Below, in pieces: positions 5,887-62,230 of a stretch of DNA of 64,000 nucleotides (positions are counted from its first letter, which is position 1; the number at the start of each line of letters is the position of its first letter). Under the pieces are notes generated by a model. The model was given only the letters and a program-made list of their open reading frames with translations. It was not told where the DNA came from and did not search any database. This DNA is from Alphaproteobacteria bacterium (lineage in GTDB: Bacteria; Pseudomonadota; Alphaproteobacteria; SP197), in the NCBI GenBank assembly GCA_964291265.2, contig OZ219747.1:1504001-1568000 (forward strand). The letters are read 5' to 3'. The translations under genes were made by a program, and so were the position numbers.

Positions 5887-5961
5887 CGGCCGGGGATGGT
5901 TAGGTGGAAGGATCCGGAATGGGTCGCTTCATGGTGTCTGTCAGGTGTTCGCGGGCACCGC

Positions 5962-7527
5962 TCATGCGGTCTCGGCGCGGATGTCGAGGAGGTTGCGCGC
6001 CTCGCGCCCGCAGGCCACGCCGACGAGGTGGACCGGGCCGCCGTGGTCGCGGTAGGTCTCGGCATAGCCCCGCTCGCGCATCTGCGCCAGCGCCGCATCC
6101 AGCGCCGCAGCGCCGTCCCCCTCGCCCTCGGCCATCTTGAACTCCAGCACGAAGACCTGACCGCCGAGGCGCACCACCATGTCCGCACGGCCGCGGTGCG
6201 AGGCCTCCTCCACGCTCAAATTCACCCCGACCGAACGCAGGCATATGTAGAGAAGGCTCGCATACCAGGCCTCGTAGCGCGCCAGGTCGCCCTTCGCATG
6301 CCACTGGTAGGGAATGCCCGCAAGCCAGGCGCGGAGCTTCTCGCCGAAGCCGGCGAAGTCGTTCGCCTCAAGCAGGGCGCAGAACTCGCGGCCCCGCTCC
6401 AGCGACTCGACGCCCTTCCTGCTCAGCCAGGCAAGCAGTCCGCGGTTCAGGCTGATCCGGACCTCGAGGTTGGGATAGTCCAGCCGGTAGAGAGCGTCGA
6501 ACTCGTCCCGCTCCTCCCCCGCGATGGTCAGGTAGCCGGTCTGGAAGAGCAGGGCCTCGATGGCGATGTCGCCGACATCGAACTTCGAGACCAGGGACGT
6601 GCCCGCCAGCCGTCCCTCCAGTTCCATCGGACTCACCGACTTCTCCATCAGCATACGGAACAGGAAGTCCGGCGACCCGGTCTCGAACCAGTAGGGACGG
6701 AACTCGCGGCTCCGCAGGAACAGCAACACATCGTAGGGATTGTAGACCCGCTCCCCGCCCCGCCAGTGGTAGCCGTTGTACCAGGTGCGAATCTCCTCGC
6801 GGTCCAGTCCGACAAGCTCAGGCCCGAACACACGGTCGAGATCCTCCTCGCGGTAGCCGCAGATCGTGGCGAAGCGCGGATCGAGACTGATGTCCTCGAG
6901 GTTGTTGAGCCCCGAGAACAGGCTGACCTTGGAGAACATGCTGACACCGGTGACGAAGACGAAGCGGACATGTTCGGCGCTGTCCTTGACGATGCCGTAG
7001 AAGCCGCGCAGGTAGTCCCGGTTGGCCGTCGCAAGACCGGGATCGTGGAGCACGTCGAGGATCGGCTTGTCGTACTCGTCCACCAGCACCACCACCTGCC
7101 GGCCGGTGGCGCAACGCAGGTGATAGAGGACATTCTGCAAACGCTCCGGACCCGTGTTGGCGACCGGCACCTCGTCGAGGCCGGCGCCATGTTCGATGAT
7201 CGCCAGCTGGTTGAGAATGTTGCGCTCGATGTCCCCGGGTTCGTTGTACTTGCCGCCGAAGCTCAGCCGCACCACAGGATGCGGCGCCGACCAGTCCCAG
7301 TGGGGATGGATGTCCAGGCCCCGGAACAGGGGTTCGTGGCAGGCAAAGAGCGACCGCAGGGTGTCGAGCAACAGGCTCTTGCCGAAGCGGCGCGGGCGGG
7401 ACAGGAAGTAGTGGCGCCCCTCGTCCACCAGACGCCGGACGAGCGAGGTCTTGTCGACGTAGTAGAAGTCCTCGCTGCGGATCGTCGGAAAGTCCTGGAT
7501 CCCGATCGGAAGACGGCGACGGCTCAT
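5962..7527 (-). CDS. AAA-ATPase-like plus C-terminal PD-(D/E)XK nuclease (DUF1703/PDDEXK_9 type), copy 1
   Basis: LPIGIQDF, YYVDKT, RPRRFGKS, VLVDEYDKP, GRADM...VLEFK; 521 aa from ATG 7527 with GGAGAG RBS. Confidence 0.9.
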   Translation of the reverse strand: MSRRRLPIGIQDFPTIRSEDFYYVDKTSLVRRLVDEGRHYFLSRPRRFGKSLLLDTLRSLFACHEPLFRGLDIHPHWDWSAPHPVVRLSFGGKYNEPGDIERNILNQLAIIEHGAGLDEVPVANTGPERLQNVLYHLRCATGRQVVVLVDEYDKPILDVLHDPGLATANRDYLRGFYGIVKDSAEHVRFVFVTGVSMFSKVSLFSGLNNLEDISLDPRFATICGYREEDLDRVFGPELVGLDREEIRTWYNGYHWRGGERVYNPYDVLLFLRSREFRPYWFETGSPDFLFRMLMEKSVSPMELEGRLAGTSLVSKFDVGDIAIEALLFQTGYLTIAGEERDEFDALYRLDYPNLEVRISLNRGLLAWLSRKGVESLERGREFCALLEANDFAGFGEKLRAWLAGIPYQWHAKGDLARYEAWYASLLYICLRSVGVNLSVEEASHRGRADMVVRLGGQVFVLEFKMAEGEGDGAAALDAALAQMRERGYAETYRDHGGPVHLVGVACGREARNLLDIRAETA

Positions 7528-7898
7528 CGGTCTCTCCCTTCGCGGCGCCGGAACCTGCGGCTGAGGCGGGAAGTGCCGGACCTCCCGTGTCGCGGCTCCG
7601 AATGTCCCGGAACGGTCATGTCTGAACACAACGGTCACGCTATCCGCCCGCCTGTCCATGAGCAAGGGAGAGGTACGACCAGGGCGAACATGAAGGGCAA
7701 CCCGCAGCCGTTGAAGCACCGTTCAGCTTGGCAACCCGGAGGCTCATGCTGCGAAGCGGCGCCGAGCATCGAAAGGCGCCTTGCAGCGTGAGCCGTTCGG
7801 CCCTGTCCTCCGAGAATGCCGTATCGGCCGGGAATGGTTCGGTGGAAGGATACGGAATGGGTCGCTTCGTGGTGCGGACAGGCGTTCGCGGGCGCCGC

Positions 7899-9464
7899 TC
7901 ATGCGGTCTCGGCGCGGATGTCGAGGAGGTTCCGCGCCTCGCGCCCGCAGGCCACGCCGACGAGGTGGACCGGGCCGCCGTGGTCGCGGTAGGTCTCGGC
8001 ATAGCCCCGCTCGCGCATCTGCGCCAGCGCCGCATCCAGCGCCGCAGCGCCGTCCCCCTCGCCCTCGGCCATCTTGAACTCCAGCACGAAGACCTGACCG
8101 CCGAGGCGCACCACCATGTCCGCACGACCACGGTGCGAGGCCTCCTCCACGCTCAAATTCACCCCGACCGAACGCAGGCACATGTAGAGAAGGCTCGCAT
8201 ACCAGGCCTCGTAGCGCGCCAGGTCGCCCTTCGCGTGCCACTGGTAGGGAATGCCCGCAAGCCAGGCGCGGAGCTTCTCGCCGAAGCCGGCGAAGTCGTT
8301 CGCCTCCAGCAGGGCGCAGAACTCGCGGCCCCGCTCCAGCGGCTCGACCCCCTGCCTGCCCAGCCAGGCAAGCAGTTCGTCGTTGAGGCTGAGCCGGACC
8401 TCGAGGTTGGGATAGTCCAGCCGGTAGAGGGTCCTGTGGCCCTGCTTCTCCTCCCCCGCGATGGTCAGGTAGCCGGTCTGGAAGAGCAGGGCCTCGATGG
8501 CGATGTCGTCGACATCGAACTTCGAGACCAGGGACGTGCCCGCCAGCCGTCCCTCCAGTTCCATCGGGCTCACCGACTTCTCCATCAGCATGCGGAACAG
8601 GAAGTCAGGAGATCCGGTCTCGAACCAGTAGGGACGAAACTCACGGCTCCGCAGGAACAGCAACACATCGTAGGGATTGTAGACCCGCACCCCGCCCCGC
8701 CAGTGGTAGCCGTTGTACCAGGTGCGGATCTCCTCGCGGTCCAGCCCGACCATCTCAGGGCCGAACACACGGTCGAGATCCTCCTCGCGGTAGCCGCAGA
8801 TCGTGGCAAAGCGCGGATCGAGGCTGATGTCCTCGAGGTTGTTGAGACCCGAGAACAGGCTGACTTTCGAGAACATGCTGACACCGGTGACGAAGACGAA
8901 ACGGACGTGTTCAGCGCTGTCCTTGACGATGCCGTAGAAGCCGCGCAGGTAGTCCCGGTTGGCCCTCGCAAGCTCGGGATCGTGGAGCACGTCAAGGATC
9001 GGCTTGTCGTACTCGTCCACCAGCACCACGACCTGCCGGCCGGTGGCGCCGTGCAGACGGTCAAGAAGATTCCGCAGACGCCTCGGACCGGTATCGGAGG
9101 TCCGAGCAGGCGGAAGATCATACCCGCGTTCCACGCTCTCCAGTTGCTCGATGATGTCCCCTTCGATCTCGCCCGGCTCGTTGTACTTCCCGCCGAAGCT
9201 CAGCCGCACCACCGGATGAGGTGCCGACCAGTCCCAGTGGGGGTGGATGTCGAGTCCCCGGAACAGGGGTTCGTGGCAGGCAAACAGCGACCGCAGGGTG
9301 TCGAGCAGCAGGCTCTTGCCGAAACGGCGCGGGCGGGACAGGAAGTAATGGTCACCCTGCTGGACCAAGTCTCGGATGAGAGGGGTCTTGTCGACATAGT
9401 AGCTGCCGGTCTCCCGGAGGCGCCGGAAGTCCTGGATCCCGATCGGAAGACGGCGGCGGATCAT
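7899..9464 (-). CDS. AAA-ATPase-like plus PD-(D/E)XK nuclease, copy 2 (tandem paralogue)
   Basis: Same motifs and same length (521 aa) as copy 1; long identical stretches. Confidence 0.9.
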   Translation of the reverse strand: MIRRRLPIGIQDFRRLRETGSYYVDKTPLIRDLVQQGDHYFLSRPRRFGKSLLLDTLRSLFACHEPLFRGLDIHPHWDWSAPHPVVRLSFGGKYNEPGEIEGDIIEQLESVERGYDLPPARTSDTGPRRLRNLLDRLHGATGRQVVVLVDEYDKPILDVLHDPELARANRDYLRGFYGIVKDSAEHVRFVFVTGVSMFSKVSLFSGLNNLEDISLDPRFATICGYREEDLDRVFGPEMVGLDREEIRTWYNGYHWRGGVRVYNPYDVLLFLRSREFRPYWFETGSPDFLFRMLMEKSVSPMELEGRLAGTSLVSKFDVDDIAIEALLFQTGYLTIAGEEKQGHRTLYRLDYPNLEVRLSLNDELLAWLGRQGVEPLERGREFCALLEANDFAGFGEKLRAWLAGIPYQWHAKGDLARYEAWYASLLYMCLRSVGVNLSVEEASHRGRADMVVRLGGQVFVLEFKMAEGEGDGAAALDAALAQMRERGYAETYRDHGGPVHLVGVACGREARNLLDIRAETA

Positions 9465-9496
9465 TGGTCTCTCCCTTCGTGACGCTGGAACCGGAC

Positions 9497-9528
9497 GCTA
9501 CTGATGCGGACCTGTCCATGAGCAAGGG
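9497..9528 (-). promoter_or_regulatory. Shared upstream motif/putative sigma70-type promoter of the AAA-nuclease genes (second copy at about 7637-7668)
   Basis: CCTGTCCATGAGCAAGGG at 7651-7668 and 9511-9528; on the minus strand TTGCTC followed 17 or 19 nt later by TAGCGT. Confidence 0.35.
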
Positions 9529-10408
9529 ACGAAGGATATGGCCGCGACAAGGAGTGCCTGTAACCCGAACTTCCGTCAGATTTTCGAGGTTTTGGCTGCC
9601 CCGTTCGAGGGACATTACGACGAATGCACCGCCCACCCTTGCGGCGCATGGCCTCATCATGGCTGCCCGGGCAGAGCATCGCTGTCGAGCGTCGTTCCGC
9701 ATGAAATTCAGACATCCTGACCTCGTCCGCCGGAAGGTGAGACGACTTTGGAGTGTTGTGCCATCACCGGGGAGATCTCCCTCGCCTCTCCCGTGGCCGC
9801 TGCGGTGCGTTGAAGGTTGCCTCGCCCCTGGCCTTCAGGAGCTTACGCCGTACGGTAGACAGTGGACCGCGAGACATTGAAGGCCCTGACCGGATCGACA
9901 CAACTCAACGCCGACGATCGTGAAGAACCTGGCGATGCGCAGGGCCTGGGTCCGAGCGTCATGGCAGTCAAAGGGCGCGAGATCGGAGAAGCGCCATGCC
10001 TGATCATCGATGACGGCCCATGAGAAGGAAGCTGGGATGGCTGTGGCATCGACTCCCTATAGTGGCAGGAAGGATATCACGACTTGGCACACTTGTCGTC
10101 AAATGTCGAGCGGAAACCGCGCCCAAACCAAGGCCTTCCCATGCTGGAATTCGCTTGATTTCACTTGACGTCAGGCGTTCGTATGTTGCACGCGCGCGGA
10201 CATTTCCCGCTGGCCATCCCGCTTGGGATGTGCGACGGTCCGGTCATGTTGTCGATTCGCAAGCGCATGGAAGCTGTCCCGATCCATCAGGAAGCTCCTG
10301 AGGGTTTTTCCCTGTCTGAGGTTCAGACGTCCTGACCTCAGTGAGTTGACTTGATCAGTCCGGCCCTTTTTTTTCCAACACAATGAACGCTTTTCCCAGT
10401 TTTTTTGC

Positions 10409-10437
10409 TTGACAACATAGCCGTGGGGTGATCCAAT
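10409..10437 (+). promoter_or_regulatory. Putative sigma70 promoter for the transposase
   Basis: TTGACA-17 nt-TCCAAT with upstream TG and a T-rich tract before the -35. Confidence 0.4.
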
Positions 10438-10471
10438 ATAACATGACGCCTATATTGGAGCAGTCCAGGCC

Positions 10472-12736
10472 ATGAACACGCTCGCAATGCACCCTCCCGA
10501 AGCCGTCCAGATCGGAACCTCGTGCTTCTCCCTTGCCGACCTCGACGGACAGACCGTCTACTTCTCGAACATGGAGCCCTTCGACTGCCACGACGAGGGC
10601 GACCGGCCGGCCATGCTGCTGCGGATCGCCAGGTTCGCCAGGCACGGCGTTCCTCAAGGAGACCTGCAGGCGGCCTTCGACGTGAGCCGCGCGACCGTGC
10701 AGCGGGCGGTGAGGAAGCTCCGGGACGAGGGTGAAGCGAGCTTCTACGAGCCGCGCAAGGGCCGTGGTCTCAGCGTGATCACAGGCGAGACGGCGGCCGC
10801 GGCGAACCGTCTCCTGGCCGAGGGCATGAACGCCGCGGCACTGGCCCGGGAACTGGGGATCGCGAGATCGACGGCGTACTACAACCTCAGCAACGGCTTC
10901 ATCGGCGGCGGAGAGCGGCCGCAGGCGGCGCAAGTCGACGAGGCCACGCGATGCCCGGACGATCTTCTCGGCCGCGGCGAACGGGACCGTCGCGACAGGG
11001 TCGCGCCGATGGGGCGCGGCGCGCGCGACAGCGCCGGGCGCGTCGCGGCCTCGACGGGAGCCATGAGCGAAGCGCCGCCGCGCTTCGACGAGCCACTCTC
11101 GGCGGTCGCCGGCGGCGGCGTCCTGGCGGCGCTGCCGGCGCTGCTGAAGGAGGGTCTCCTGGAGCACGCGGACAGGTTCCTGTCGCTGCCGAAAGGGTAC
11201 TACGGGCTGACGAGCGTGCTTCTCATGCTCGCCTTCCTGTTCATGGCCCGGATCCGCAACCCCGAGGCGCTGCGCCACGAGGCGCCCGGGGAACGGGGTG
11301 CGGTCCTGGGGCTCGACCGCTGCCCGGAGGTCAAGACGCTGCGGCGCAAGATCAGGGCGCTGGCGAGCGACCCGCAGCGGGTCCGGGACTGGCAGGACGC
11401 GCTGGCGAAGGACTGGATCGCGGAGGCGCCGGATGTCTGCGCGACACTGTCGGTGGACGGGCACGTGAAGGTATATTCGGGCCGCAAGGGTCGCCTGCCG
11501 AAGCACTTCGTGTCACGTCAGAAGCTCTGTCTGCCGGCCTCGACAGGCTATTGGGTCAACGCGCTCGGCGGCCGGCCGCTCCTGTGCCTGCACAAGGACC
11601 TCGATCCGACCATGACGCACGCGCTGGAGCACGACATCCTGCCCGCGCTGGAGCGGCTCGGCCTGCCGGGGCCGGAGGCGCCGGACCTCGCCAGGGGAGA
11701 GGCGGTCGCGCCGGGGCTGACGCTGGTGTTCGACCGCGAGGGCTGGAGCCCGGCGCTGTTCGCCCGCCTCGCTCGGCGCGGGGTGGCGGTGATCACCTGG
11801 CACAAGGGGTTCCGGAGCGGTCCCTGGCCACAGGGAGAGTTCCGCACGGTCCGGGTGCCGCTCCACTCACCAGGTGGCGTCCGCACCGCCGAGGTGCGGC
11901 TCGCACAGAGACGGATCACGCTGTCCGGCGGGCCGCAGGTGCGCCAGATCCGGCGTCTTCTGGACAGCGGCCGGCAGGTGCCGCTGATCACCACGGACAT
12001 GCACACGCCCATGGAGCGGGTCGCCGGCGCGCTGTTCTCGCGCTGGTCCCAGGAGAACTTCTTCAAGTACATGCGCCAGGAGTTCGGCCTCGACGCGCTG
12101 GCCGTGCACGGCCTTGTCGAGCAGGACCCCGAAGCGCGCGTCGTCCATCCGCACTGGCGCCGCTGCGACCGCCGCATCCGCCAGCTGCGCCAGAAGCTCG
12201 GCACACTGCGCAACCGCGTCGCCGACCTGCTCAAGGGCGCCTCGTCCGACACCGCCATCACGGCCGCCGCGACGCTGCAGGACAAGATCGTGACGCTCGA
12301 CGCCGAGCACGAGGCGCTCAAGGTCCGGCGTTCAGAAATCCCGAAACATGTCACCGTGGCCGAGCTCGACGAGAACGACAGGCTCGACGCCCTGCCCTCC
12401 AGCGAGAGGCTGCTGCTCGACATCGTTCGCATGATCGCCTACCGCGCCGAAACCCGGATGATGGCCGCCGTCGCCCAGGCCCAGGGCGCAAAGCAGCGTC
12501 CGCGACGCCCCCTCGCCGAACTGTTCCAGTCGGACGCCGACATCATCCCCGATCAGGAAAACCGCGTCCTGCGGGTGCGCTTCCTCGGCACCGCCAGCAA
12601 CGCGCGCGACGCCGACATCGCCGGACTGCTCGACGAACTCAACCAGACGCGCACGACCTTCCCAGGAACCGACCTGCGCATGATCTACGAAATGCCAGAC
12701 AACCCAGCCAAACTCGGCCCAGAAGCATCAAACTGA
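10472..12736 (+). CDS. Putative DDE transposase with N-terminal HTH domains (754 aa)
   Basis: Fills the IR-bounded element; SVDGH, VFDREG and RWSQENFFK give a D-D-E pattern; GGAG RBS. Confidence 0.85.
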   Translation: MNTLAMHPPEAVQIGTSCFSLADLDGQTVYFSNMEPFDCHDEGDRPAMLLRIARFARHGVPQGDLQAAFDVSRATVQRAVRKLRDEGEASFYEPRKGRGLSVITGETAAAANRLLAEGMNAAALARELGIARSTAYYNLSNGFIGGGERPQAAQVDEATRCPDDLLGRGERDRRDRVAPMGRGARDSAGRVAASTGAMSEAPPRFDEPLSAVAGGGVLAALPALLKEGLLEHADRFLSLPKGYYGLTSVLLMLAFLFMARIRNPEALRHEAPGERGAVLGLDRCPEVKTLRRKIRALASDPQRVRDWQDALAKDWIAEAPDVCATLSVDGHVKVYSGRKGRLPKHFVSRQKLCLPASTGYWVNALGGRPLLCLHKDLDPTMTHALEHDILPALERLGLPGPEAPDLARGEAVAPGLTLVFDREGWSPALFARLARRGVAVITWHKGFRSGPWPQGEFRTVRVPLHSPGGVRTAEVRLAQRRITLSGGPQVRQIRRLLDSGRQVPLITTDMHTPMERVAGALFSRWSQENFFKYMRQEFGLDALAVHGLVEQDPEARVVHPHWRRCDRRIRQLRQKLGTLRNRVADLLKGASSDTAITAAATLQDKIVTLDAEHEALKVRRSEIPKHVTVAELDENDRLDALPSSERLLLDIVRMIAYRAETRMMAAVAQAQGAKQRPRRPLAELFQSDADIIPDQENRVLRVRFLGTASNARDADIAGLLDELNQTRTTFPGTDLRMIYEMPDNPAKLGPEASN

Positions 12737-15186
12737 TTGGACAAATTCATAGCCGAGGTCAGGACGTCTGAGGTTGAGGTTCGCCTGGCGAGGCCGGAGG
12801 AGCGTCCGCTCCTGGACGCGCTGATGAACGAGTACCACGATCTCGGCTTCCGTCGCCTGGCGGGTCGCGGTCTGCGCTACCTTGCGACCTTCAGGGGCCA
12901 TTGGCTGGGTCTGGCGGCGTGGCAGAACGGCGCCTTCAAGTGCGCTCCCCGCGACCAGTGGACCGGCTGGAAGCCTTAAGCAGCAGTTCCAGCGGCTCGG
13001 GGTGGTGGCCAACAACACGCGGTTCTTGCTCCTCTCCAAGCCCGGGGTGTTTGCGAACCTTGCTTCTGAGTTTCCTTGCGTGCATGACGCGCCGGCTCTG
13101 TGACGACTGGCTGAAGGTGCACGGCCACGGGGTGCTGCTGGCGGAGACGTTGAAGCGATCCGGAGATCTTTGCCGGCACGATGTTGAAGGCTGCGGGCTG
13201 GACGTGTCTGGGTGAGACCAAGGGGTTTGCCCGCTCCAACGGGCGTTACACCGATCCTCACGGCAAGCCCAAGGATATCTACGTTACGGCACTGAGGCGC
13301 GATGCCCGGGCGCTGCTGTCGAGCCCACTGCCGCTTCCCCCCGACGTGGTGCCGCCCTCATGCCCCGAACTGGCGCCCCGGGACCCCAAGGTGCTGCGCT
13401 CGCTCTACGCTTAAGCGCGGCCATTCCCGACTTCCGCCGGGCGCAGGGAAGGAAGCATACCGCGGCATCGGTGCTCACCGTGCACGTGCTCGCCGAGTTC
13501 GCCAACATGAAGGGCTGTGTCGCCGCCGCGCAGTTCGCGCGGTCCCTGTCCCAGGAGGAGTTGGAGGCCATCGGCGCGTGGCTTAACCCGAAGACGGGGC
13601 TTCGCGAGCCCGTCTCCAAGTCCACCATCCACCGGGCCATCCACCGGGTTATCCAGTCGATCGACCCCGAGGCTCTGGAGGATGTGCTCGCCCGCTGGTC
13701 CCGGCCTCGGCTTCACCTCGCCCGTGCACTCGCCGCCGACGGCAAGCGCATCCGCGGCGCCAACCGCAACGGCGATGGCCGTCTGAGAGACCGTGGCCCT
13801 TGTCGACCATGAGACCGGCGCGCCCTTTTCCCTCCTGAACTTCAACGACGAAGGCGGCGAACTGGCGGCCATGCACGATCTCCTGGAGCGCAGCGACATC
13901 GGCGGCAAGGTGATCACCCTCGACGCGCTGCACACGACACGCCATACCGCGAAGCTGATCACACAACGCGCGGATTACGTCTTCGTCGTCAAGGGCAACG
14001 CCCCGGAGACCTTCGCCATCCTCGACAGCATCAATTGGCAAAAGGACGCCACCGGCCACTTCACGGAGCCGTTCGACAAGGCGCACGGTCGACTGGAACA
14101 GCGTTCAATCAGCGTCCTCGTCCCGCCCGCACGGTCTGATCAACTATCCGGGCGTCCGTCAGGTCGCCCGCATCACCCGCTATCGGGAGCCGTGGAAGAA
14201 AGGCCCCGGCGATGCCGGGAAGCAAGAAGAGAAGGGTTACACGGAAACCGATTACATCATCACCTCTCTCGATACGGGGGCCACATCGCCGGAAGAGTTG
14301 CTGCGACTGAACCGCCGCCACTGGGCCGTGGAAAATCTGAACCATCGACAAAGGGATTGCGTCTTCGGCGAAGACGCCTGCCTGACCCGCACCGACAACG
14401 GCCCGGCGAACCGGGCCAGCCTCAACAACATCGCGCTCGCGGTGATCTTCGCCAACCGCCGCGAGGCCGAAAGCCTCGCCGAAACCCGGCGCCGCCTACA
14501 ACTGGACCGTCGCGAGGCCATCAACGCCCTGACCCGGCCCTGAGGCGCCTTGAGCGTCCGGGGATCCCGGAACGCTGCCAGAACATCAAGAACCAGGCAT
14601 CCGGGCCGAAAACGCTGCCGGTGTCGCCATGCGGGCGGCACTGAAGCCACGGAATCCGTCCAGGACATCCCGATTCGGCCTCGATTCGTCGGCCTCGCGA
14701 AAGATCAGATGGCCGATTCGGGCGCGATTCATCGGCTTCCCGAAAAATCAGCCGTAGCGTAGGAAAGTCCTGGCGCCCAAACTCAAGCCGGAACCATGGG
14801 AAAACAGTGCCGATTCGCTTTCGGCGGCGCATGCGCATTGTGCATGTCGACCTGCATTGATGTGACGGCTTTCCTCTCGACTGCAGTGTCATGCTGGATG
14901 GCGTTTCCAACAGACTCGCTCGAAACGGATACCTCGAGGGTGCCTGTCCCGGCGGGTGGAAACGGTCATATCTCGTGGAGTTTCGAGATCGCTTCGTCAC
15001 GCACCGGCGCATGACCGGCATCCCCGTGAGGCTCACCCCGGCACCAGGCGACAGCAACCGCTGCACCAACGGGCAGAACAGCAGCTGGCTCGATGCCGCG
15101 CGTTGCGCGCAAAGCCTCGGGCCCGCTCTTGCCGTGGTTTCCTTCTTCGCTCAGACTTTTGCTCCTTGTCTGGAAAGGGGCGCGTT

Positions 15187-15963: not shown

Positions 15964-16887
15964 CCCGGCATTCGTCGTCGGTGGTTCTCGCCATGGAACG
16001 GTTCCAGGGGAGAGAACGTGCACCAGAGGCTGAGGGTTGAGACTCAGCGCGTGGCTTCCCAAGGAGATCGACTTCCGACTTGATACCGATCCTGCCATTG
16101 GGGGGGGGGGTCGGTATGAGGGCAGCGATTCCCTTGAGGGAGGATTTCGATGCCGCGCCGCTGTGTGGCTCGGCGCAATGAAGCCGGGATGGCGCGCGGA
16201 ACCGTCGACTTCTTGCGCTTGCGGTGACATGTGACGGTCATCGTCGTTCGTATGCGGCGCGCCTTGCCGGGGTGGGGCTTACGGATCATCCGGGACCGGG
16301 TTCTTCGCTTCAACGCGGAAGGCCCGGAGGGATTGAAGGATCGCAAGGCCTCAGGCCCGCCGCGCAAGTTGAATGCGAAGCAGCGTACGGCGCTGGCGGC
16401 GGTTGCGGGGAGCTGTCCGAACCCGGCGACCCACGGCGTGGTGCGTTGGCGGCGTTCAAAGAAACGTCCCGGAACGGCTGAGGTCGAGGCCCGCGTGCGG
16501 CAACAGAACAAGATGTCGGCGGCGATTTAGAACGGCGGGATATTGGCGGAGAACCGCTCTTTTGGGCGCTGATCGTGTGAGTGGGTGACCACGACAGGAG
16601 AACGTGCGGCATTGGACGAAGGTCCGCCCGGTCTTTGTTTTCTGCCTATTGTTGGATCCCATTGGTCTTGCATTGACGTTGACGATGTCGTTCCGGTCGG
16701 CGTTTTCTGGCGTTCGGCGTTTGTGGAACGTGATGTGGGAGGGGAGCTTCAGGCTTTTGCGCGTGGTTTCGTTCTGGCGTTCTCCGTCCTCGTCGTGGTT
16801 CGTCGGGCGGGACGATCTCGAGGCTGGAGAGCTGACGGTTTCTGTTGCGCTGGGCGAAGAGGCTGCGTGCGTTGCGGTTGCGGCGGC

Positions 16888-17608
16888 GCAGGGTGCGGCA
16901 GGCGTCGAGTGTTTTCGGGCGGATGCTGCGACCTGTGAGCCAGTCCGGCGGCGGATCGGGCGTTGCTGCGGCTCAGCGGCTGCGGCAGTCTCGTGATGTG
17001 GTGTCGTTTGGACGGCCCGGGGGTTTCCCGGGGAGGCTGAGAGGCGCGTCGGGGTGAGACGTTCTCATTCCTGGATGGTAACGCGTGACCGCGTTCAAGG
17101 GTCTTGCGAGATTACGTGTCCCTTCCGTAGCCGCGTGGCGGTTCGATGTCCTCGAGAGCCTCGATGTCGGCATCGGCGACGATCTGCAGGCGTTCTCCGT
17201 AAGGCGTGTCACGGAGGGTTTCGGGGATGCTGTCGAGGCGGTCACGCCATTCGTCCTGCAGGGTGCGGCAGGCGTTGAGTGTTTTCGGGCGGATGCTGCG
17301 ACCTGTAAGCCAGTCCGGCCAGCGGCTGCGGCAGTCTCGTGATGCGGTGTCGTTTGGACGGCCCGGGAGTTTCCCGGGGAGGCTGAGCGGCGCGTCGGGG
17401 TGAGACGTTCTCATTCCTGGATGGTAACGCGTGACCGCGTTCAAGGGTCTTGCGGGATCACGTATCCCTTCCGTAGCCGCGTGGCGGTTCGATGTCCTCG
17501 AGGGCCTCGATGTCGGCATCGGCGACGATCTGCAGGCGTTCTCCGTAAGGCGTGTCACGGAGGGTTTCGGGGATGCTGTCGAGGCGGTCACGCCATTCGT
17601 CCTGCAGG
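16888..17608. repeat. Near-identical tandem duplication (units of about 370 and 346 bp) inside the IS21 element
   Basis: Matching sequence at a 346-bp offset (17054/17400, 17112/17458, 17206/17552); the second unit lacks 24 bp. Confidence 0.85.
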
Positions 17609-17778
17609 GCGCGCAGTTCGGCCACGGCGTCGTTCCAGCGTTGCGGTCGCGAGCGCCGGTCACGATGCTTTGGGGTGTGGACGGGAGGGATGCCGGCCTT
17701 GCGCCGTTCCCGGTATCGCCGCTGCTTTTCGGCGGGCGTGAGGGGCATGAGTGGTCTCCTTGTGACGGACGTGGTCAT
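17458..17778 (-). CDS. Small basic/helical hypothetical protein of the IS21 element
   Basis: ATGA overlap with the Toprim gene stop; PLTPAEKQRRYRERRK...PPRGYGRD; alternative start 17748. Confidence 0.7.
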   Translation of the reverse strand: MTTSVTRRPLMPLTPAEKQRRYRERRKAGIPPVHTPKHRDRRSRPQRWNDAVAELRALQDEWRDRLDSIPETLRDTPYGERLQIVADADIEALEDIEPPRGYGRDT

Positions 17779-18668
17779 GATCTCGCTTGTGGTTCTTTGG
17801 TCCTGGCGTTGACGACGTCGTTCCAGTCGGCGTTTTCCGGCGGTCTGCGTCTGTGGAACGAGACGTGGGAGGGGAGCTTCATCTTTTTGCGCAGGGTTTC
17901 GGCCTGTCGCTCTCCGGCCTCGTCGTGGTCCTGGGCGAGGACGATGGTCCTGACGTTGGGCAGGCTGCTTGCGGCGAGGCTGATCTGTTCGTGCTGTCTT
18001 CGCGAGGGTGCCCCGGCGGTGGAGAGGAAGGCGTGGCTGGGGGGACATTGGTCGATCTGGGCCAGGCTGAGGGCGTCGACGGCGCTTTCGGTGATGACGA
18101 GGGCCTCGAGGTCCGCGGCGGTTCCGGCGCGGACGGCGAACAGGCTTCGGGTTCCACCGGTGGCGAAGCGTTTCGGTCCGTCGGGGGGACCGATCTCGAA
18201 GCCGGTGAGCTTTCGCTTCCTGTTGCGATGGGCGAAGAGGACGCGTCCGTTGTGGTCGCGGCGGACCAGGGGGCGGCAGGTGTCGAGGGTCTCCGGGAGG
18301 ATGCCGCGCCCGGTGAGCCAGTCCGGGGCCGCATCGGGCGTTGCCGCGGCCCAGAGGCTGCGGAAGTCGCGTGGCGCGGTGTCGGGTGCTGTGAAGCGGG
18401 TGCAGATGTCGGCGAAGGCCAGTCCGCGGTTGAGCATGAAGTCGATGACGGTTCCGTTGTCTTCATCGTTCTGGGTGTTGAAGTAGACCCAGTGTCCGTT
18501 GTTGAGGCACTTCGTGACGAGCTTCGGCAGGCCGGGTGCGCACAGGACGGGGTTGGCGCGTGTCGAGGCCTGTTCGTCGCGGACGTATCCCCAGTCGGCG
18601 GCGATGCGTTCGAACGGCATGCGCTTGACGGCGTCGAAGTCGACGCGGCGGGGTTTATCGGGTTTCAC
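17775..18668 (-). CDS. Toprim-domain primase-like protein (DUF3991/Toprim_2-like architecture)
   Basis: DNGTVIDF, WLTGRGI, GRVLFAH, ITESAVDALS, LSTAG, AQDHDEAG (DxD), DWND; GTG start overlapping the istB end. Confidence 0.8.
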   Translation of the reverse strand: MKPDKPRRVDFDAVKRMPFERIAADWGYVRDEQASTRANPVLCAPGLPKLVTKCLNNGHWVYFNTQNDEDNGTVIDFMLNRGLAFADICTRFTAPDTAPRDFRSLWAAATPDAAPDWLTGRGILPETLDTCRPLVRRDHNGRVLFAHRNRKRKLTGFEIGPPDGPKRFATGGTRSLFAVRAGTAADLEALVITESAVDALSLAQIDQCPPSHAFLSTAGAPSRRQHEQISLAASSLPNVRTIVLAQDHDEAGERQAETLRKKMKLPSHVSFHRRRPPENADWNDVVNARTKEPQARS

Positions 18669-19356
18669 GCCTGAGCCGCCAGGAGTCGCTGTCGATGGAG
18701 ATGAGGGTTGCGTCGTGCATGAGCCGGTCGACGGTGCCGGCGATGCCGGAGGCGCTGGGGAAGACGCGGTCCCACTGGGCGAAGGCGAGGCTTGTCGTGA
18801 CCATGGTCGAGCGGCGCTGATAGCGCCGCGAGACGATGGCGTAGAGGATGTCGGCATGGTGGCTTTCGAGGGTCACGTAGCCGATTTCGTCGAGGACGAG
18901 CAGGCGGGGCCTGGCGAGGATCGCGAGGCGGCGGCGCAGCTCGCTGCGCGAGACGGTCTCGGCGAGTGCCTCGAGCAGTTCCGGCGCCTTCTCGAAGCGG
19001 ACGGTGTGGCCGTGCAGCAGGGCCTGGTGCGCCACGTTGGCGGCGATCATGGTCTTTCCGGTGCCCTGCCCGCCGACGAGCACGGCGTTGTCCGCACGGT
19101 CGACGAAGCCGAGGCCGAGGAGCGCTTCGACATGAGCCCGGCTGATGTCGCGCGGCCATGTCCAGTCGAAGTCCGCCAGGGGCTTGAAGGCGGGCAGCCG
19201 CGCCGCGGCGCGGCGGCGCTCGTGGCTGCGGGCCCTGCGGGCCTGTTCCTCGCCGCTGACCACCTCCTCGATCCATGCGGTCCCGGCGACCTCGTCCCAG
19301 CGTTCGACGAGCCCGTGGAGGCCGAGCGCCCGGGCACGCTCCCTGAGCTCGCTCAT
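18655..19356 (-). CDS. istB: IS21-family ATP-binding helper protein IstB
   Basis: FDWTWP, GGQGTGKT, LVLDEIGY, DRLMH; ATGA overlap with istA. Confidence 0.92.
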   Translation of the reverse strand: MSELRERARALGLHGLVERWDEVAGTAWIEEVVSGEEQARRARSHERRRAAARLPAFKPLADFDWTWPRDISRAHVEALLGLGFVDRADNAVLVGGQGTGKTMIAANVAHQALLHGHTVRFEKAPELLEALAETVSRSELRRRLAILARPRLLVLDEIGYVTLESHHADILYAIVSRRYQRRSTMVTTSLAFAQWDRVFPSASGIAGTVDRLMHDATLISIDSDSWRLRRETR

Positions 19357-20846
19357 GTCTTGTTCCTGGCGCTGGCTTCGGGCCTGTCGTAGGCGTCGAG
19401 AGCGGTCCCCCGCGGCGTCGTGCCACGGCCGCCGCGGCCGTCGTCGGCGATGCTGAGGGGCGGCAGGCCCTGCTCCCGGCGGCGCTCTTCGATGATGACG
19501 CGCACGGTTTCGGGGTGGCACGAGCCGCGCTCCAGCGCCGTGGCGACAGCCCGGTCGAGAGCGTCGGCGCCGTGCGCGTTGAGAAGCGTCTCCAGCATCC
19601 GGGCGCAGGAGGCCACGTTGCGCCCGTTGGTCCCGGCGCGCGCCAGCATCTCCTCGGCCCGCGGCACGGTGCGCAGGACCCGGTCGCGGACGCTCATGGA
19701 GCGGGCCCGCCGCTTGCCCGCGGCGATCGCCCTGGCATGCTCCGGATCGGTGACGGCCTGCTTCCTGTCGTAGGAGCGTCGGTGGCGCGCGACCTCGTCG
19801 GCGCCGTCGAGGATGCGGACCTCGTCGCGGTCGGCGACCAGCGTCAGCAGGGCCTTGGAGAAGCTACCCGGAACGCTGTAGTCGTTGGTGTCGAAGCGGG
19901 CGTGGCAGGTCTTGTCGATGCGCACCGGGCGGACCTCGTGATGCGGGAAGGGGTCGACGGGAAGGACGATCAGGTGCTCCCTCTCCCGGGCGAAGGCGTC
20001 CCGCACCAGGAGACTGTCGTCGTCCGGCCAGGGCCGCTCCGCGGCGGCGCCGAAGCACCACTCCCGAACCGCGGCGTTGAGCTCGCCGAGCGGGACCGTG
20101 ATGTCGCGCCCGGCGAAGAACCCGGTGCGCGCGAAGCGCACACGGCGTTCCACGCGGCCCTTCTCCTGCGGGCTCCTGGGCCAGGCGGCGCTCGGTTCGA
20201 AGGCATAGTGGGCCGCGAGGCCGAGCAGCATCGGATGATAGGTGACCGCCTTGCCGCGGCGCGTCACCACGGCACTCTTCAGGTTGTCGTACAGAAGCCT
20301 CCGCGGCACACCCCCGAATGCCGCGAAAGCCTCGACATGGCCTTGCAGGAAGCTGGCCATCCGCGCGTCGTGGAACAGGCTCAGGACAGTCTGGCGCGAG
20401 TAGCTGAGGGTGACGAGAAGCCCCATGAGCCTGCGCTCCGCCCGGCCAATGCGGACCTTCCCGAACTCGGCCCAGTCAACCTGCGCCTGCTCGCCCGGAA
20501 GGAAGCTCAGCCGCAGCGACGGCTCGGGCCTCTTCACCGGCCTCAGCCCGAGGCGGCGCAGGTCGTGACGGAAGTGATCCTCGCCGCCGCGGTAGCCCAG
20601 GGCCACGACCTGTCGCCAGAGCGTGCTGGCCGGAAGGTCCGGCGACGCCTCAAGACGCTCCCCGAGGAAGGCAACGAAGGGGTCGATGAGCTTGGCCCGC
20701 GGCCGCCGCTCCTGCCCCGACGCCTTGAGCGCCCGCGTCACCGTGCCGTGGTGCACGCCGAGATGCCGGGCAATCGTCCCCACAGCCCAGCCCTCGGCCC
20801 GCGACAGCCGCACGATCGTCGCCCGCGTGTCCTCGTCGATCGCCAT
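19353..20846 (-). CDS. istA: IS21-family transposase IstA
   Basis: N-terminal HTH; PGEQAQVDW, LSYSR, LYDNLKSAV, EKGRVER; GGAG RBS. Confidence 0.95.
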   Translation of the reverse strand: MAIDEDTRATIVRLSRAEGWAVGTIARHLGVHHGTVTRALKASGQERRPRAKLIDPFVAFLGERLEASPDLPASTLWRQVVALGYRGGEDHFRHDLRRLGLRPVKRPEPSLRLSFLPGEQAQVDWAEFGKVRIGRAERRLMGLLVTLSYSRQTVLSLFHDARMASFLQGHVEAFAAFGGVPRRLLYDNLKSAVVTRRGKAVTYHPMLLGLAAHYAFEPSAAWPRSPQEKGRVERRVRFARTGFFAGRDITVPLGELNAAVREWCFGAAAERPWPDDDSLLVRDAFAREREHLIVLPVDPFPHHEVRPVRIDKTCHARFDTNDYSVPGSFSKALLTLVADRDEVRILDGADEVARHRRSYDRKQAVTDPEHARAIAAGKRRARSMSVRDRVLRTVPRAEEMLARAGTNGRNVASCARMLETLLNAHGADALDRAVATALERGSCHPETVRVIIEERRREQGLPPLSIADDGRGGRGTTPRGTALDAYDRPEASARNKT

Positions 20847-20878
20847 GAACTCCCTCCCTTTGGTTCCTCAACGCCGCA

Positions 20879-21409
20879 TCACAGGTCCCTCAGCACCACA
20901 TGCGTCACGACCCGTCCGCACCGGGCGCACCGAAGCGGCGATTCGCGTCGCTCTCGCGCCTTCACAACCGCAGGTAGGGAGGTCGGCAGCAGTCGGGAAG
21001 GGTGGTCCGTAACGATTTCTTCGGAACCGGCGTCTCCAGACACCGCCGGAACGTCGCCAAGCAGCACCACAGCAGACGTCTGCGTGCCCATGATCTCGGC
21101 AAGCATCGCCGCCCTGGCCTTCAACGCACGCGCCTCCTCCGCCTTGCGGAGCCGGTAACGCCGCTGGCGGTGACGGCCCGTCTCACGGCCCCTCAGCGTG
21201 CTCTGGTAGCGACGACGCGACGCGCGGCGCCGCTCGATCCGGGACCGCTCCCTGCACTCATCGGAGCAATACACATGCCCCCGGTCACACGACCGGCAGA
21301 GAACAACCTGCCGCTGACACCGCTTGCAGTTGAACAGTCGTCCCGTCGTGCACACGATCCGTCTCGAGAGCGGGGGTGGACCCGGACGCAAAATGGCTCG
21401 ACAATACAC
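20879..21409 (-). CDS. Cys-rich zinc-finger-like, Arg-rich protein upstream of istA (start may be GTG 21355)
   Basis: CKRC-x6-CRSC-x6-CSDEC, then an Arg-rich helix and a C-terminal CARC. Confidence 0.65.
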   Translation of the reverse strand: MYCRAILRPGPPPLSRRIVCTTGRLFNCKRCQRQVVLCRSCDRGHVYCSDECRERSRIERRRASRRRYQSTLRGRETGRHRQRRYRLRKAEEARALKARAAMLAEIMGTQTSAVVLLGDVPAVSGDAGSEEIVTDHPSRLLPTSLPAVVKARERRESPLRCARCGRVVTHVVLRDL

Positions 21410-22059
21410 GGGAGTTCGGTCCCCCGTGACCGGCTCGTCCGGGTGCTGCGCCGGGGGGCGTCATCACAACTCTGCCCGGCATCGCATCGCTCTTTCTTTC
21501 GATGCCGATCTAGCATCCACCCGGGGCGGCGGCAAAAACGCCGCCCCGGGACCGGACAACACGACCCAGACCACAGGGAAAACAGACGATCCCGCGAGTG
21601 CCTCGGAACCGAAACCCTCCCGGCAACCGTCACCAAGACCGAAGCAGAGGCCGACGGAACAATCCGAACCGGACCAAAACGACAATAGGAAAACGGGCGG
21701 CGCTCGGGGAGACAATCAGCCGAACACTGAACCCACGACAACAGGACGTGACAATAGGACCTGACAACAGGGAAGAAACACGACCCTGACAAAGCGCGGC
21801 AAATCGCCGAAATCCCGCCGTTCTATGCAGCCATCAACACAAGATCACCCGGCGCTGGGCAAAACGCGGCATCCGATCGTCAACCCCCAAGGACCGGGGG
21901 ACAGGCTCCGCCTGAGTCTTCGGCGCCATCTGCCCGAACCGTGGCAAGGTCGCCGGCCTCGTCATGCTCGACGCCAACACGGAGGCGCTGAACGCCCATG
22001 CCGCCGAGATCGGCTGCGCCGTCGAACCCGGCGCCCCATGCCACCACGCAGGGTGTCGT

Positions 22060-43838: not shown

Positions 43839-44223
43839 GTCGGTTCGTCACGGTCGACCTTAACGGCTGGCTTGATCATCTGGTCGACGAGGACAGGCAG
43901 GTGCGGACACTCGGTTTCCGGTCCTGCCTGTACAAACATGAGGGCACCTGGCTCTGCGGCGCCCAGGCGCTGGCCGCGGCCAGGGATTCCCGGATGGATC
44001 AACCGCTTGTCGTCGGAGCCGAGGCCCTGGACGGGGCGGCCGGACAGGGGATGAACCCGCCGGAGGGGCACGACGCTCTGCCGGCAGCCTTGTGGCAGCT
44101 TGCGGCAGACGCAGCCAGCAGGTCTCCGTCCGGCGGACCGATTCATCTGGCCCTCGTCATTCCGGACGATCAACATCTGGGGAGCGTGGAACCAGGCAAG
44201 ACAGGCAAAACAGCGGTAACTAC

Positions 44224-45702
44224 TCACCCCTTGTTAGGGTCTGGTTGTCCGTAGTGCTGGTTGAGGATGTCTACGGCCTTTCCGTCGAGGGCGATGTGGA
44301 TGGCGACGTGAGGGTTGTAGCCGAGTGCGTCCATGGTGGTGAGGTAGCTTGAGCCGCGGCACCATGCTTTGGCGTGGGGCATGGTACGGAAACATCCGGA
44401 CACCTTGATCTTGACCTTTGTCATCCTGATCTTCTGCTCTCCGGTATTATTTGTGAAACTGACATTGGGGTCCTTCATGAAGCGCAGGACGGACTTCTCG
44501 TGTTTCACGAGACGTTCATGCAGGTTGTGCGCGTCGGACTTTGCGATGCGTCCCCGTTTTCCTTTCGTCCGTGGCGGGATGTCGGGCAGTTCCCTGGCGC
44601 CCTGGGTGAGGATGGTGCGGTAGCGCTTGCGCACGGCCCGGCGGTCGGCCTCGTTCAAGGTCTTGGATGCGCTCTTGTTGACCCTGCGGGAGACCTCGCG
44701 CAGCAGGCTTTTCATCAGTCGCGCCCAGCGGTAGCCGTTGGACTCGACGACGAAGGTCAGTTCGCGCAGGAGATGGCTGCCGCACAGTTGGTGGCGGCAT
44801 TGATCGTAGCCCATGTAGGCAGCCCAGCAGTCGTGGATCAGGACGCCCTTGTAGCGCGGGATGATGCCGATCTCTTCGATCGCCTCCCGGCCGCGCTTGG
44901 GGTGCGGGAACTTGCACGTCAGGGTGCCGTCGGTGACGACATGGAGCCATTGGGTCTTGCCGGCGACCCGGAAGCCGGTCTCGTCGACATGCAGGGCCGG
45001 TTGTTGCAGGAGATGGGCCACGGCGGCCTCCTCCCATGATGCGAGGGCATCGTGAAAGCGCCGGACATAGCCGAGGCAGGTCGCCTCGGAGAGCTTGATG
45101 CCGGAGATCGCGTGCACGAGCGAGACGGCACGACGCAGGGACAGCATCTGGGCGATCAGCAGGTTGATGACGAGGGCCTGGATGCTGACGCCATACTGCA
45201 GGGGGCCCGGCATGTTGTCTGGGAACCGGCCCTTGGTCCGGGTCCGGCACTTCGGGCATTCCTTGATCTCGGCTTCGACGCGGCGCTCGACGACTTCGAA
45301 CACGATGTCGTAGAGGACGCGGCACTCCCGGTCGACGGGGTCGACATCGTGGAGGTCGGCGCCGCAGGCGTCGCAGGCATCGACGACGATCGTCTCCTCG
45401 ACGGTGGTCGTGCGCAGGTTGTCGCCCGTCTGCTGGTTCGGTTTCGGGCCCTTGCCGTGGCTCCCGGTGCGCCTCGCGCTCTCGTCCTTGTCAGTCTGCG
45501 ATGGCGGCAGACCGGAGTTCCGGCTTGTCTTGCGTGTGATCTTCTCCATGAGCACGGTCAGCAACAGCTTTATCAGCATCAGCATGCCGCGGAAGAGCTC
45601 CTCGCACTCCTGGTTGACCTTGCCCTGCTTGCGGAGATCCTGGAACTGCTTCTGGAAGACGTCGGCCTCCTGGCGCACAGACGTGCCGTTCACGCTCGCC
45701 AT
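44224..45702 (-). CDS. IS66-family transposase (single-ORF type)
   Basis: SRNSGLPPSQ, CDAC/CPKC, LHVDETG, LIHDCW, HQLCGSHLLREL, FTNNTGEQKIR. Confidence 0.93.
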   Translation of the reverse strand: MASVNGTSVRQEADVFQKQFQDLRKQGKVNQECEELFRGMLMLIKLLLTVLMEKITRKTSRNSGLPPSQTDKDESARRTGSHGKGPKPNQQTGDNLRTTTVEETIVVDACDACGADLHDVDPVDRECRVLYDIVFEVVERRVEAEIKECPKCRTRTKGRFPDNMPGPLQYGVSIQALVINLLIAQMLSLRRAVSLVHAISGIKLSEATCLGYVRRFHDALASWEEAAVAHLLQQPALHVDETGFRVAGKTQWLHVVTDGTLTCKFPHPKRGREAIEEIGIIPRYKGVLIHDCWAAYMGYDQCRHQLCGSHLLRELTFVVESNGYRWARLMKSLLREVSRRVNKSASKTLNEADRRAVRKRYRTILTQGARELPDIPPRTKGKRGRIAKSDAHNLHERLVKHEKSVLRFMKDPNVSFTNNTGEQKIRMTKVKIKVSGCFRTMPHAKAWCRGSSYLTTMDALGYNPHVAIHIALDGKAVDILNQHYGQPDPNKG

Positions 45703-46364
45703 GACGACGCCTCCACCGCCATGACAGCCGCCAGCACGGCGAGCCGCTCGCCTTCGGGCATCGTCCGGTAGCGCCGCGCCCAGCTCTCTGCGAGGCGCTT
45801 GATGCGCTGGCGGTCGATCGAGTTCCTGCCCGCACACGTATGCCAGTGCGGCCGGCCCGGTGCGAAGTTGAACCACAGCTTCTCGGTGACAACGCAGGCC
45901 TGGTTGTTGACCTGGACCTCGGCCGAGCGCCAGCCGGCGAGGTGCGTGTCGTAGAGCCGCGAGGGATAGCCGGAGATCATCACCTGGCAGGGCAGCGACG
46001 TCAGGATGTCGAGGAGCGCAACATGGTCATCGTCCGTGCAGTCGAAGCGGTAGCGGCGCTGCGACCGGCGCGTCGACTGCACGTAAGGCGGGTCGCAGTA
46101 GACCAGCTCGCGGCCCTGGAAGGCGAAGGTCTCGAGAAAACGCAGGGCGCAGCCTTGGTGAAGCTCCACCGGATAGTCACAGCGGAAGGTGTCGATCGCC
46201 CGTCGGTTGAGGTCGATGCCGATGCTGCGTAGCGCCGGAGGCTTGCGCTTCATGATCGCGCCGCCCCCAAGGAACGCCTCGATGTACACGTCATGCGGCG
46301 GCATGGCCGCGACGATCGCCTGGCTCAGACCCGTCGTCGCCTTCGATCCGTACCATGCCGCCAT
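45690..46364 (-). CDS. DNA adenine methyltransferase (Dam/D12-like, short form)
   Basis: YGSK, YIEAFLGGGA (SAM binding), VYCDPPY (catalytic), MISGY, TEKLWFN. Confidence 0.85.
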   Translation of the reverse strand: MAAWYGSKATTGLSQAIVAAMPPHDVYIEAFLGGGAIMKRKPPALRSIGIDLNRRAIDTFRCDYPVELHQGCALRFLETFAFQGRELVYCDPPYVQSTRRSQRRYRFDCTDDDHVALLDILTSLPCQVMISGYPSRLYDTHLAGWRSAEVQVNNQACVVTEKLWFNFAPGRPHWHTCAGRNSIDRQRIKRLAESWARRYRTMPEGERLAVLAAVMAVEASSWRA

Positions 46365-60648: not shown

Positions 60649-60694
60649 ATGGCACGAACCAGCATCGATATCGATGACGAGACCTGCCTGGAGG
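60649..60694 (+). pseudogene. N-terminal stub of a VapB-like antitoxin cut by an IS66 end
   Basis: MARTSIDIDDE resembles the RTxIDIDD start of VapB antitoxins; abuts GTAACTGCCC at 60695. Confidence 0.4.
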
Positions 60695-61514
60695 GTAACT
60701 GCCCAGGTCTGATTTCGCCGAGTCCTGACGGGAGGTGGATTGATGGCTGCGGTCTGATGGCGCCGAGGAGGGATGTCAGAAGCGCAGTTTCGGGATCAGC
60801 TGTATGGGATCGGGGTGGGCCAGTGTTTCGAGGACATTCCAGCCCTGTTTTCGGGCGATGGAGATGACGGATCGCAGCTTGGCGAAGTCCCATGCGCCCT
60901 GCATGGATCGGAAGCCGCCCGAGATTTTCTGGCGCAGCTTGCTCATGCGGAAGTCTTGCTCGGCCTGGTTGTTGGAGAACGGGACTTGCGGGTTGGTGAG
61001 GAAGCGCAGGCAGCCGTCCTTATGTTTGTGAAGGCGGAGCGCGAGGTTGTGGCCGATGCGGCGTTTTCGTCGTCCGCGCTTTCCGGGCTGGAGCGGCGAC
61101 CTCTGTTCGTGGGAAGCGATGGCCTGCTCGAGGATCCTGTCCCAGGCTTGCGAGATGCGGGCGAGGAGTGAAGCGGGGATGTCGCGGTCGTTCTTGCGGG
61201 CGAAGCGGGCGGCTCTGTTGGCACGGATGAGGAGCCTGTGCATGGCGGTGGCCCAGTCTTCCTTCTCGATCTCGATCAGAGCCTGGAGTTCGCGCGAGCG
61301 ATGGGCGTTGCAGGCACCGTGGCGCACGCCTTCGAGAGTGAAGTAAGTGGCCAAGTCGTCATGGATGACGATGCCGTTGAGTGTCTCGTCGATGTGTTTG
61401 CGCCCGGTGGCGATGCGCAGGATGGTGAGCAAGGGGGTGCACAGCACATGGAGCCAGTGGGTCTGGCCGTTGATGCGGATACCGGTCTCGTCGAGGTGTT
61501 TGACCGGTGCTTGG
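60695..61514 (-). pseudogene. IS66-family transposase 3' half with its right end
   Basis: VKHLDETG, IHDD, CNAH..REL, FSNNQAEQDFRM (stop at 60776); IR-like GTAACTGCCCA at 60695. Confidence 0.82.
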
Positions 61515-61727
61515 GTGCGGTGTGCCAGGTGAACTGGCGGAAGGTAGGGGGTGAAAGTCCCCTGGAACGAAGGAGTAACCAAACCACGTTTCTCCGCGAG
61601 CCGTGCGTCGGTTCCCGCGAGGGGGCAGGCGAAGCGTCGGTAGCGGTGCGGATGGGCGGGGCTAATGAGCACCGAAAAAGCAGTCATCCGGGGTGCCGAG
61701 GCTTTCGTACCGGTCGAAGGCAACATC
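61515..61727 (+). ncRNA. Truncated group II intron 5' region (domain I), antisense to the IS66 transposase
   Basis: Begins GTGCG at the point where transposase similarity stops; contains GGTGAAAGTCCC, GAGCCGTGCGTC...CGCGAGGG...GGCGAAGCGT and GGGTGCCGA...GAAGGCAACAT; no RT ORF or domain V follows. Confidence 0.7.
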
Positions 61728-62224: not shown

Positions 62225-62230
62225 GGCGCA

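Follow-up and report, generated by a model that had tools for sequence, protein, structure and literature searches.

The 64,000-nucleotide stretch of DNA analysed here (the window; contig OZ219747.1, positions 1,504,001 to 1,568,000, of the alphaproteobacterial assembly GCA_964291265.2) harbours an insertion sequence of the IS21 family that encodes, behind its transposase gene istA and its ATPase gene istB, a protein with DUF3991 and Toprim domains and a predicted primase fold. The element spans window positions 16514-21839 (5,326 bp), and its five open reading frames (ORFs) all lie on the minus strand, in the order Cys-rich ORF, istA, istB, DUF3991-Toprim gene (toprim hereafter) and small ORF. 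The features are as follows, by window position.

16231..16513, plus strand: 5' part of an interrupted transposase relic (HTH_32 E 1e-7, HTH_29 E 2e-5), the frame of which resumes past the element
16509..16513, plus strand: target-site duplication CAAGA, left copy, supported by the empty-site contig of run X2
16514..16562, minus strand: right terminal inverted repeat, element end ...CA on the gene strand
16674..17318, minus strand: decayed duplicate pieces of toprim and the small ORF, 81-97% to the intact genes, the part that varies most among copies
17458..17748, minus strand: small accessory ORF, 96 amino acids, intact in 28/32 copies
17775..18668, minus strand: DUF3991-Toprim protein, 297 amino acids from GTG 18668, T7 gp4/DnaG-type primase fold predicted by a model; acidic residues E201, D205, D254, D256 and D288 are numbered from 18689 (minus 7 for the GTG start)
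18655..19356, minus strand: istB, AAA+ ATPase, 233 amino acids, Walker A/B intact, Ser189 at the sensor-I Asn position
19353..20846, minus strand: istA, IS21 DDE transposase, 497 amino acids, catalytic-type residues D124, D187 and E233
20879..21409, minus strand: Cys-rich ORF, putatively zinc-binding, with GTG 21355 as the likely start, common to sisters without the primase
21445..21485, minus strand: conserved 10-bp palindrome with a spacer of ~20 nucleotides (nt), upstream of the Cys-rich ORF
21791..21839, minus strand: left terminal inverted repeat, element start TG... on the gene strand
21840..21844, plus strand: target-site duplication CAAGA, right copy
21845..21917, plus strand: 3' part of the same transposase relic, to its first stop

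The element, its ends and its copies

The boundaries proposed in the first-pass annotation were all found: the gene-strand ends read TG...CA, CAAGA flanks the element on both sides (16509-16513 and 21840-21844), and the inverted repeat 16528-16562/21791-21825 (35 nt, 77%) is the longest among 604 in the 15.5-23 kb interval. The statement that the element splits a transposase frame holds as well, since in silico removal of the element and one CAAGA restores a single reading frame through QNK|ITRRWAKRG. This frame stops soon afterwards and the interrupted target is therefore a relic, present in one copy only in the genome; its motif marks it as putatively of IS630 type. One contig of the public run X2 runs straight through the insertion point, with neither the element nor any other letter in between, and the insertion at this site is thus polymorphic among close populations.

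In the 4.83-Mb genome, 49 left-end and 40 right-end matches form 34 pairs within 9 kb, and the element makes up 4.1% of the sequence. Other copies with different target duplications, which the earlier annotation proposed to look for, do exist: duplications flank 28 of the 34 paired copies and comprise 26 different sequences (22 of 5 bp, 4 of 6 and 2 of 7), and some of the six copies without them are inserted into other copies or rearranged with them. Alignment of 32 paired copies (4.9-5.4 kb) shows the Cys-rich ORF, istA and istB intact in all 32, toprim in 31 and the small ORF in 28. The element has transposed often and recently in this genome. This multicopy state was overlooked at first, as were the degenerate duplicates that occupy ~750 nt at the right end of the element. 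Some five copies sit within another copy of the element or directly next to one (C2:295923-308929, 4058043-4075257, 4144635-4152391 and 4237410-4258495), and target immunity therefore looks weak or absent. Repeated DNA makes up the left flank of 19/34 copies, versus 103/400 random windows.

Some side observations concern repeated DNA more generally. About a quarter of random 150-nt chromosome windows are repeated DNA, and further multicopy stretches of the window lie at 5887-9509, 10128-14775, 44215-46673 and 60694-62226 (20-66 genome matches). The contig depth in run X1 is ~2,000 at 16492-21867 and ~17 in both flanks, which exceeds the expectation from 34 copies; this depth, uncorrected against single-copy genes, does not give the number of copies, and further strains or organisms in the run add to it.

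The gene core and the Toprim protein

Assignment of the two transposition genes is robust. IstA matches NF033546 (E 9e-66, 222 bits, above the cut-off of 160), and IstB matches PF01695 (E 4e-50, 171 bits, above the cut-off of 24) and the IstB of IS5376 (E 7e-31), its score against NF038214 (191 bits) being slightly below the cut-off of 200. The Toprim protein matches PF13155 above the cut-off (E 4e-13) and DUF3991 below it (E 6e-4). No Pfam match was obtained for the Cys-rich ORF and no family above the cut-off for the small ORF; a helicase or Rep/initiator gene was not found among the five ORFs scanned. It had been claimed that the last four ORFs overlap one another. This is correct for istA/istB (4 nt) and istB/toprim (14 nt), but between the toprim stop and the small ORF a gap of 26 nt is more likely, because an AGGAG Shine-Dalgarno sequence precedes the small-ORF ATG at 17748, which coincides with the start of a homologue; an overlap would require the ATG at 17778.

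The association of toprim with istA and istB was followed through other genomes. When species genomes were scanned with the Toprim protein, 52 loci came up in 15 assemblies whose titles name Paracoccaceae or other Alphaproteobacteria, and istB or its 3' end lies directly upstream of near-complete toprim in 40/40 loci. The four genes stand in order in 8 of the 15 assemblies (two of them broken), the remaining seven having fragments only, and the copies in other genomes measure 4.0-4.7 kb, with TG...CA ends and target duplications of their own. Since this first set was chosen by toprim, a counter-search was started from IstA among 60 relatives, with 11 stretches fetched: toprim is present in 7/7 loci that have, at 49-70% IstA identity, istB and an intact downstream gene. 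The four other stretches are a broken copy with the first third of toprim, one cut inside istA, a locus called L208 and a distant IS21. The capture of toprim was thus no isolated event in one element, as it might have been had close istAB relatives lacked the gene. In broad samples, close IstA relatives occur in 3/400 genomes of the class and in 2/400 Paracoccaceae besides the centre genome, and viral contigs yielded distant matches only. Another genome has non-autonomous derivatives of 445-635 bp (L044, L045, L047 and L048, about 6760-7390), which consist of both ends and a 3' fragment of toprim.

In the trees of IstA (94/95), IstB (96/100) and toprim (95/95), a branch sets apart the ten elements that bear toprim, and among them the pairwise distances of toprim correlate with those of IstA (rho 0.90) and IstB (rho 0.92). 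Nei-Gojobori ratios of non-synonymous to synonymous substitution rates (dN/dS; 21 pairs, 7 elements) are 0.39 for toprim, 0.365 for IstA, 0.325 for IstB and 0.58 for the Cys-rich ORF, all four values being raised by high G+C so that the comparison alone is meaningful. As far as sequences can tell, toprim is selected about like IstA, co-descends with IstA and IstB and is not a one-off capture, and the conserved core comprises the Cys-rich ORF, istA, istB and toprim. IstB itself differs within this clade: the sensor-I Asn199 of IS5376 is Ser189 here, with Ser/Thr in 25/26 clade IstBs and Asn in 15/16 sisters; the C-terminus is ~30 residues shorter, and the stem branch of the clade measures 0.88 in IstB versus 0.25 in IstA.

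The small ORF is an add-on to this core. Contrary to its inclusion in the coupled unit, it is present in only one other element lineage among the 15 assemblies. Homologues at 78% occur at C2:2592786, 2595314, 2669492 and 3033533 of this genome, and the one examined adjoins a different transposase, presumably IS110-like by its motifs. This suggests a mobile passenger shared between insertion sequence types. The palindrome before the Cys-rich ORF is found in 12 elements, with one pair altered on both sides in 5/12; it is a candidate operator, hairpin or priming site, and it is not primase-specific because the primase-less sister L208 has it too. Folding of the 440-nt leader as a whole is no stronger than that of shuffled sequences (z -1.06), no sigma-70-type promoter match was found, and Rfam gave 0 matches at E 0.1 in or near the element.

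A structural model of the Toprim protein was built from a 68-row homologue alignment (predicted local distance difference test, pLDDT, 91.6), a single-sequence fold having been discarded (pLDDT 35.7). Its best structural matches are Twinkle (top Foldseek row), Aquifex DnaG and T7 gp4. Residues 104-299, which form an N-terminal beta subdomain and the Toprim part as in the RNA-polymerase domain of primases, superpose on T7 primase with Z 15.5 (root-mean-square deviation 3.2, 176 aligned), and the comparison with DnaG gives Z 12-13.6 (Aquifex DnaG 13.6), Toprim-only matches staying at Z 11 or less. In a separate profile search, T7 gp4 was retrieved at E 8e-10, and E201, D205, D254 and D256 fall on T7 E157, D161, D207 and D209; for D288, the surrounding motif suggests T7 D237 as the probable counterpart. 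Residues E201, D254, D256 and D288 are invariant in 31/31 close homologues, at identities down to 50%. The protein is therefore predicted by the model to have a T7/DnaG-type primase fold, where its absence would have spoken against the first-pass annotation. It is not a DnaG orthologue, because it has no conserved Cys set and no NCBIfam match. A reading as a defence gene was rejected, its sole basis being a weak PADLOC match (E 7e-6) to a DRT model in its Toprim region.

Sister elements, a second transposon and outside relatives

Nine sister elements with IstA identities of 42-48% were examined (four of the 30 plasmid matches listed, four genomes and one viral contig). They share the Cys-rich gene and have no toprim. 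In 7/9, an ORF of 63-76 amino acids starts at the istB stop, and in 6 of these 7 the C-terminus consists of an acidic stretch and Phe; of the other two sisters, one has a different 101-amino-acid ORF and one has no fourth gene. Homologues of one sister slot protein end in F in 33/42 cases and in [PS]F in 30/42, these 42 tails all coming from one query and hence not being independent; among 4,734 long host ORFs taken as a control, 73 end in F and 16 in [PS]F. The tail of the single-stranded DNA-binding protein (SSB; DDDIPF in E. coli) docks replication proteins, and the end of the sister slot protein is similar to it. The slot behind istB may supply replication help, in this element a primase for the copy-out step, a view that we hold to be about evenly balanced between right and wrong. 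The wider scheme, in which this IS21 branch has an exchangeable replication slot filled by an SSB-tail mimic in some elements and by a working primase of its own here, with a second transposon family pairing primase and helicase, is more tentative and somewhat less probable than that.

The second family occurs in the same genome as a multicopy transposon of 5.16 kb with 4-bp duplications. Beyond the query (C2:47062-52222, L212), there are five whole or once-interrupted copies (C2:460796, 2281092, 2547096, 3192044 and 4052073) and a fragment. It encodes a Cys-rich ORF, an rve DDE transposase, an ExeA-type AAA+ ATPase, an AAA_25 helicase and a DUF3991-Toprim protein with E/DxD motifs, 33% identical to that of the IS21 element. 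Related Toprims adjoin ExeA-type ATPase genes in other genomes. Independent capture of a primase by both families is unsupported, as a poorly supported branch (81/74) leaves the two on the same side. The IS21 element interrupts two copies of the second transposon, and in a same-genus genome a chimera (L209:3847-5495) joins the 5' third of the IS21 toprim in-frame with the second transposon type's ExeA-type ATPase, after which comes the helicase gene of that transposon. The second transposon resembles Tn6049, which is multicopy and has a transposase and a GspA/ExeA-like ATPase, and for which no primase is named in the part of the description available (PMC2864759). Transposons of the Tn6049 type differ from the IS21 element by other transposase and ATPase families and by the 4-bp duplications.

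The nearest relatives of the Toprim protein outside transposons are 28-40% identical, with istA adjacent in 0/80 loci, many of which are on short contigs. The one annotated example (L057) lies in a stretch resembling an integrative and conjugative element (ICE), with TrbI, an S26 peptidase, a topoisomerase and an integrase at tRNA-Lys, and a tRNA is near 6/12 of the longer loci. Plasmid records matching the protein number 445, of which 293 are predicted conjugative, and a rhizobial DUF3991 gene is reported to rise together with tra genes (PMC13055273). Sequence relationships thus suggest that the primase gene of the element was probably captured from a conjugative element, the tree of its origin being unrooted.

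With regard to known systems, the element has the overlapping operon of DDE transposase and AAA+ helper, the CA-ended terminal inverted repeats and the mostly 5-bp duplications of the IS21 family, as in IS21 and IS5376 (PMC11208146). It departs from them in size (5.3 kb here, 4.0-4.7 kb in relatives), in the conserved Cys-rich gene before istA and the primase-fold gene after istB, in an IstB without the sensor-I Asn, and in having several copies nested in copies. The Toprim protein shares with plasmid and ICE proteins the pair of domains DUF3991 and Toprim_2, and with the RNA-polymerase domain of T7 gp4 and DnaG the predicted fold (Z 12-15.5 over ~180 residues) and the acidic active-site pattern; unlike these proteins, it is transposon-borne, has neither the zinc-ligand set nor a helicase or helicase-binding domain, and its basic residues are altered. 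The closest published parallel is IEE (insertion sequence excision enhancer), a primase-type protein that acts on insertion sequence families moving by copy-out/paste-in (bioRxiv 10.1101/2023.06.07.543989). IEE is an unrelated AEP PrimPol-helicase and stimulates the excision or the abortive transposition of elements other than itself, whereas the Toprim protein is encoded within the element. No description of an IS21 element with a primase gene was found in the literature searched, which mostly leaves subscription journals aside and excludes ISfinder/TnCentral and supplements, so that catalogues may list such elements; nor was an activity test of any DUF3991 protein found there.

Possible roles of the primase gene

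IS21 encodes two essential proteins, which suffice in vitro, and a copy-out/paste-in pathway has been listed or proposed for it (PMC11208146, PMC7780238, PMC3299598). In this type of pathway, conversion of the figure-eight into a circle is credited to host replication (PMC7780238, PMC3299598), the pathway of IS21 itself being a proposal (PMC11208146). The first-pass annotation suggested that the Toprim protein could prime second-strand synthesis or replication of the excised circle. The role that we infer is in copy-out synthesis, and there is about an even chance that the predicted primase does serve to prime DNA synthesis along the element in copy-out transposition. In such a scheme, IstA would connect the two element ends on a single strand, giving a figure-eight; the coupled primase would synthesize an RNA primer on the strand left exposed; a host polymerase would extend it to a double-stranded circle; and IstA and IstB would insert this circle, making the 5-7-bp duplication. 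Being made in step with IstA and IstB, the primase would constitute a local priming supply, and it would act at the same step as the SSB-tail-like small protein that, in the same slot of the sisters, would recruit host replication proteins. Formation of IS911 circles reportedly requires DnaG.

A number of observations weigh against this proposal. The host genome encodes full-length DnaG and PriA, which also rules out the idea of a host lacking either. In L208 (IstA 47%), istB is followed by the element end with no fourth gene, and short derivatives without intact toprim exist, one of which (L045) has a 5-bp duplication. The orientation of copies relative to the replichore has no strand bias (16/33), right-end/left-end junctions number 0 in the assembly, and none of the three joints that the contigs of four runs list is a circle or tandem junction, contigs being prone to drop rare forms. 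The common origin of the 42 sister tails weakens the comparison with SSB. At the level of the protein, the D205 position is Asn in 15/31 close homologues, and the N-terminal domain, although present, contains no conserved Cys set as zinc ligands. The basic residues K122 and R124 are important in T7 primase; the element's protein has Glu and Gly at these positions, and that of R124 is K/R in 37/37 distant homologues and G/A/S/T in 31/31 close ones. It may be that R174 and R181 substitute for the basic cleft residues of T7.

These residue changes lend themselves to another explanation, namely that the protein aids transposition without making primers, by binding single-stranded or branched DNA or by docking on IstA, IstB or parts of the host replisome, with its primase fold used as in Twinkle. 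The altered basic ridge, the Asn found in half of the clade, the top rank of Twinkle in Foldseek and the clade-specific changes of IstB (loss of the sensor-I Asn in 25/26, shorter C-terminus, long stem branch) are all consistent with such a helper. Invariance of four acidic residues in 31/31 homologues is hard to understand without metal-dependent chemistry, and we regard a non-catalytic helper as unlikely. Even less likely is a service in the spread between cells, where the primase, rather than aiding transposition, would prime the second strand on DNA entering single-stranded via conjugative elements, probably the task of its relatives on ICEs and plasmids too. The ICE-like stretch with its integrase at tRNA-Lys, the proportion of conjugative records among the matching plasmids, the rise of the rhizobial gene with tra genes and the presence of close elements in distant families point in that direction, but relaxase and transfer genes are missing from the element, toprim is kept in 31/32 copies multiplied within one genome, and it is translationally coupled to istB.

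The gene could also be a passenger that was acquired a single time and has been retained through linkage or because it benefits the host, without contributing to mobility. A single origin in the trees, the sufficiency of IstA and IstB in vitro (PMC11208146) and the acquisition of the clearly accessory small ORF agree with this idea; it is rendered improbable by selection equal to that on the transposase over divergence down to 49% IstA identity, by the replication-type tail that sisters hold in the same slot and by the presence of the same protein family in a second transposon family. Finally, the excised circle might be an autonomous mini-replicon, with the primase for priming and IstB, a DnaC-like ATPase, for loading, and the high depth of the element contig in run X1 could be read in this way. 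That depth is subject to the limits given above, no circle junction was seen in the assembly or among the joints listed, and the element has no helicase gene; autonomous replication, as first suggested, is thus unsupported and highly improbable.

The proposal of priming during copy-out is open to gene swaps, since primase, SSB-like tail or nothing in one slot offers a natural three-way comparison. Whatever toprim does, it accompanies a strong expansion of the element in its host genome. If the proposal is true, there would be insertion sequences that initiate their own copy-out DNA synthesis, a step so far credited to the host.

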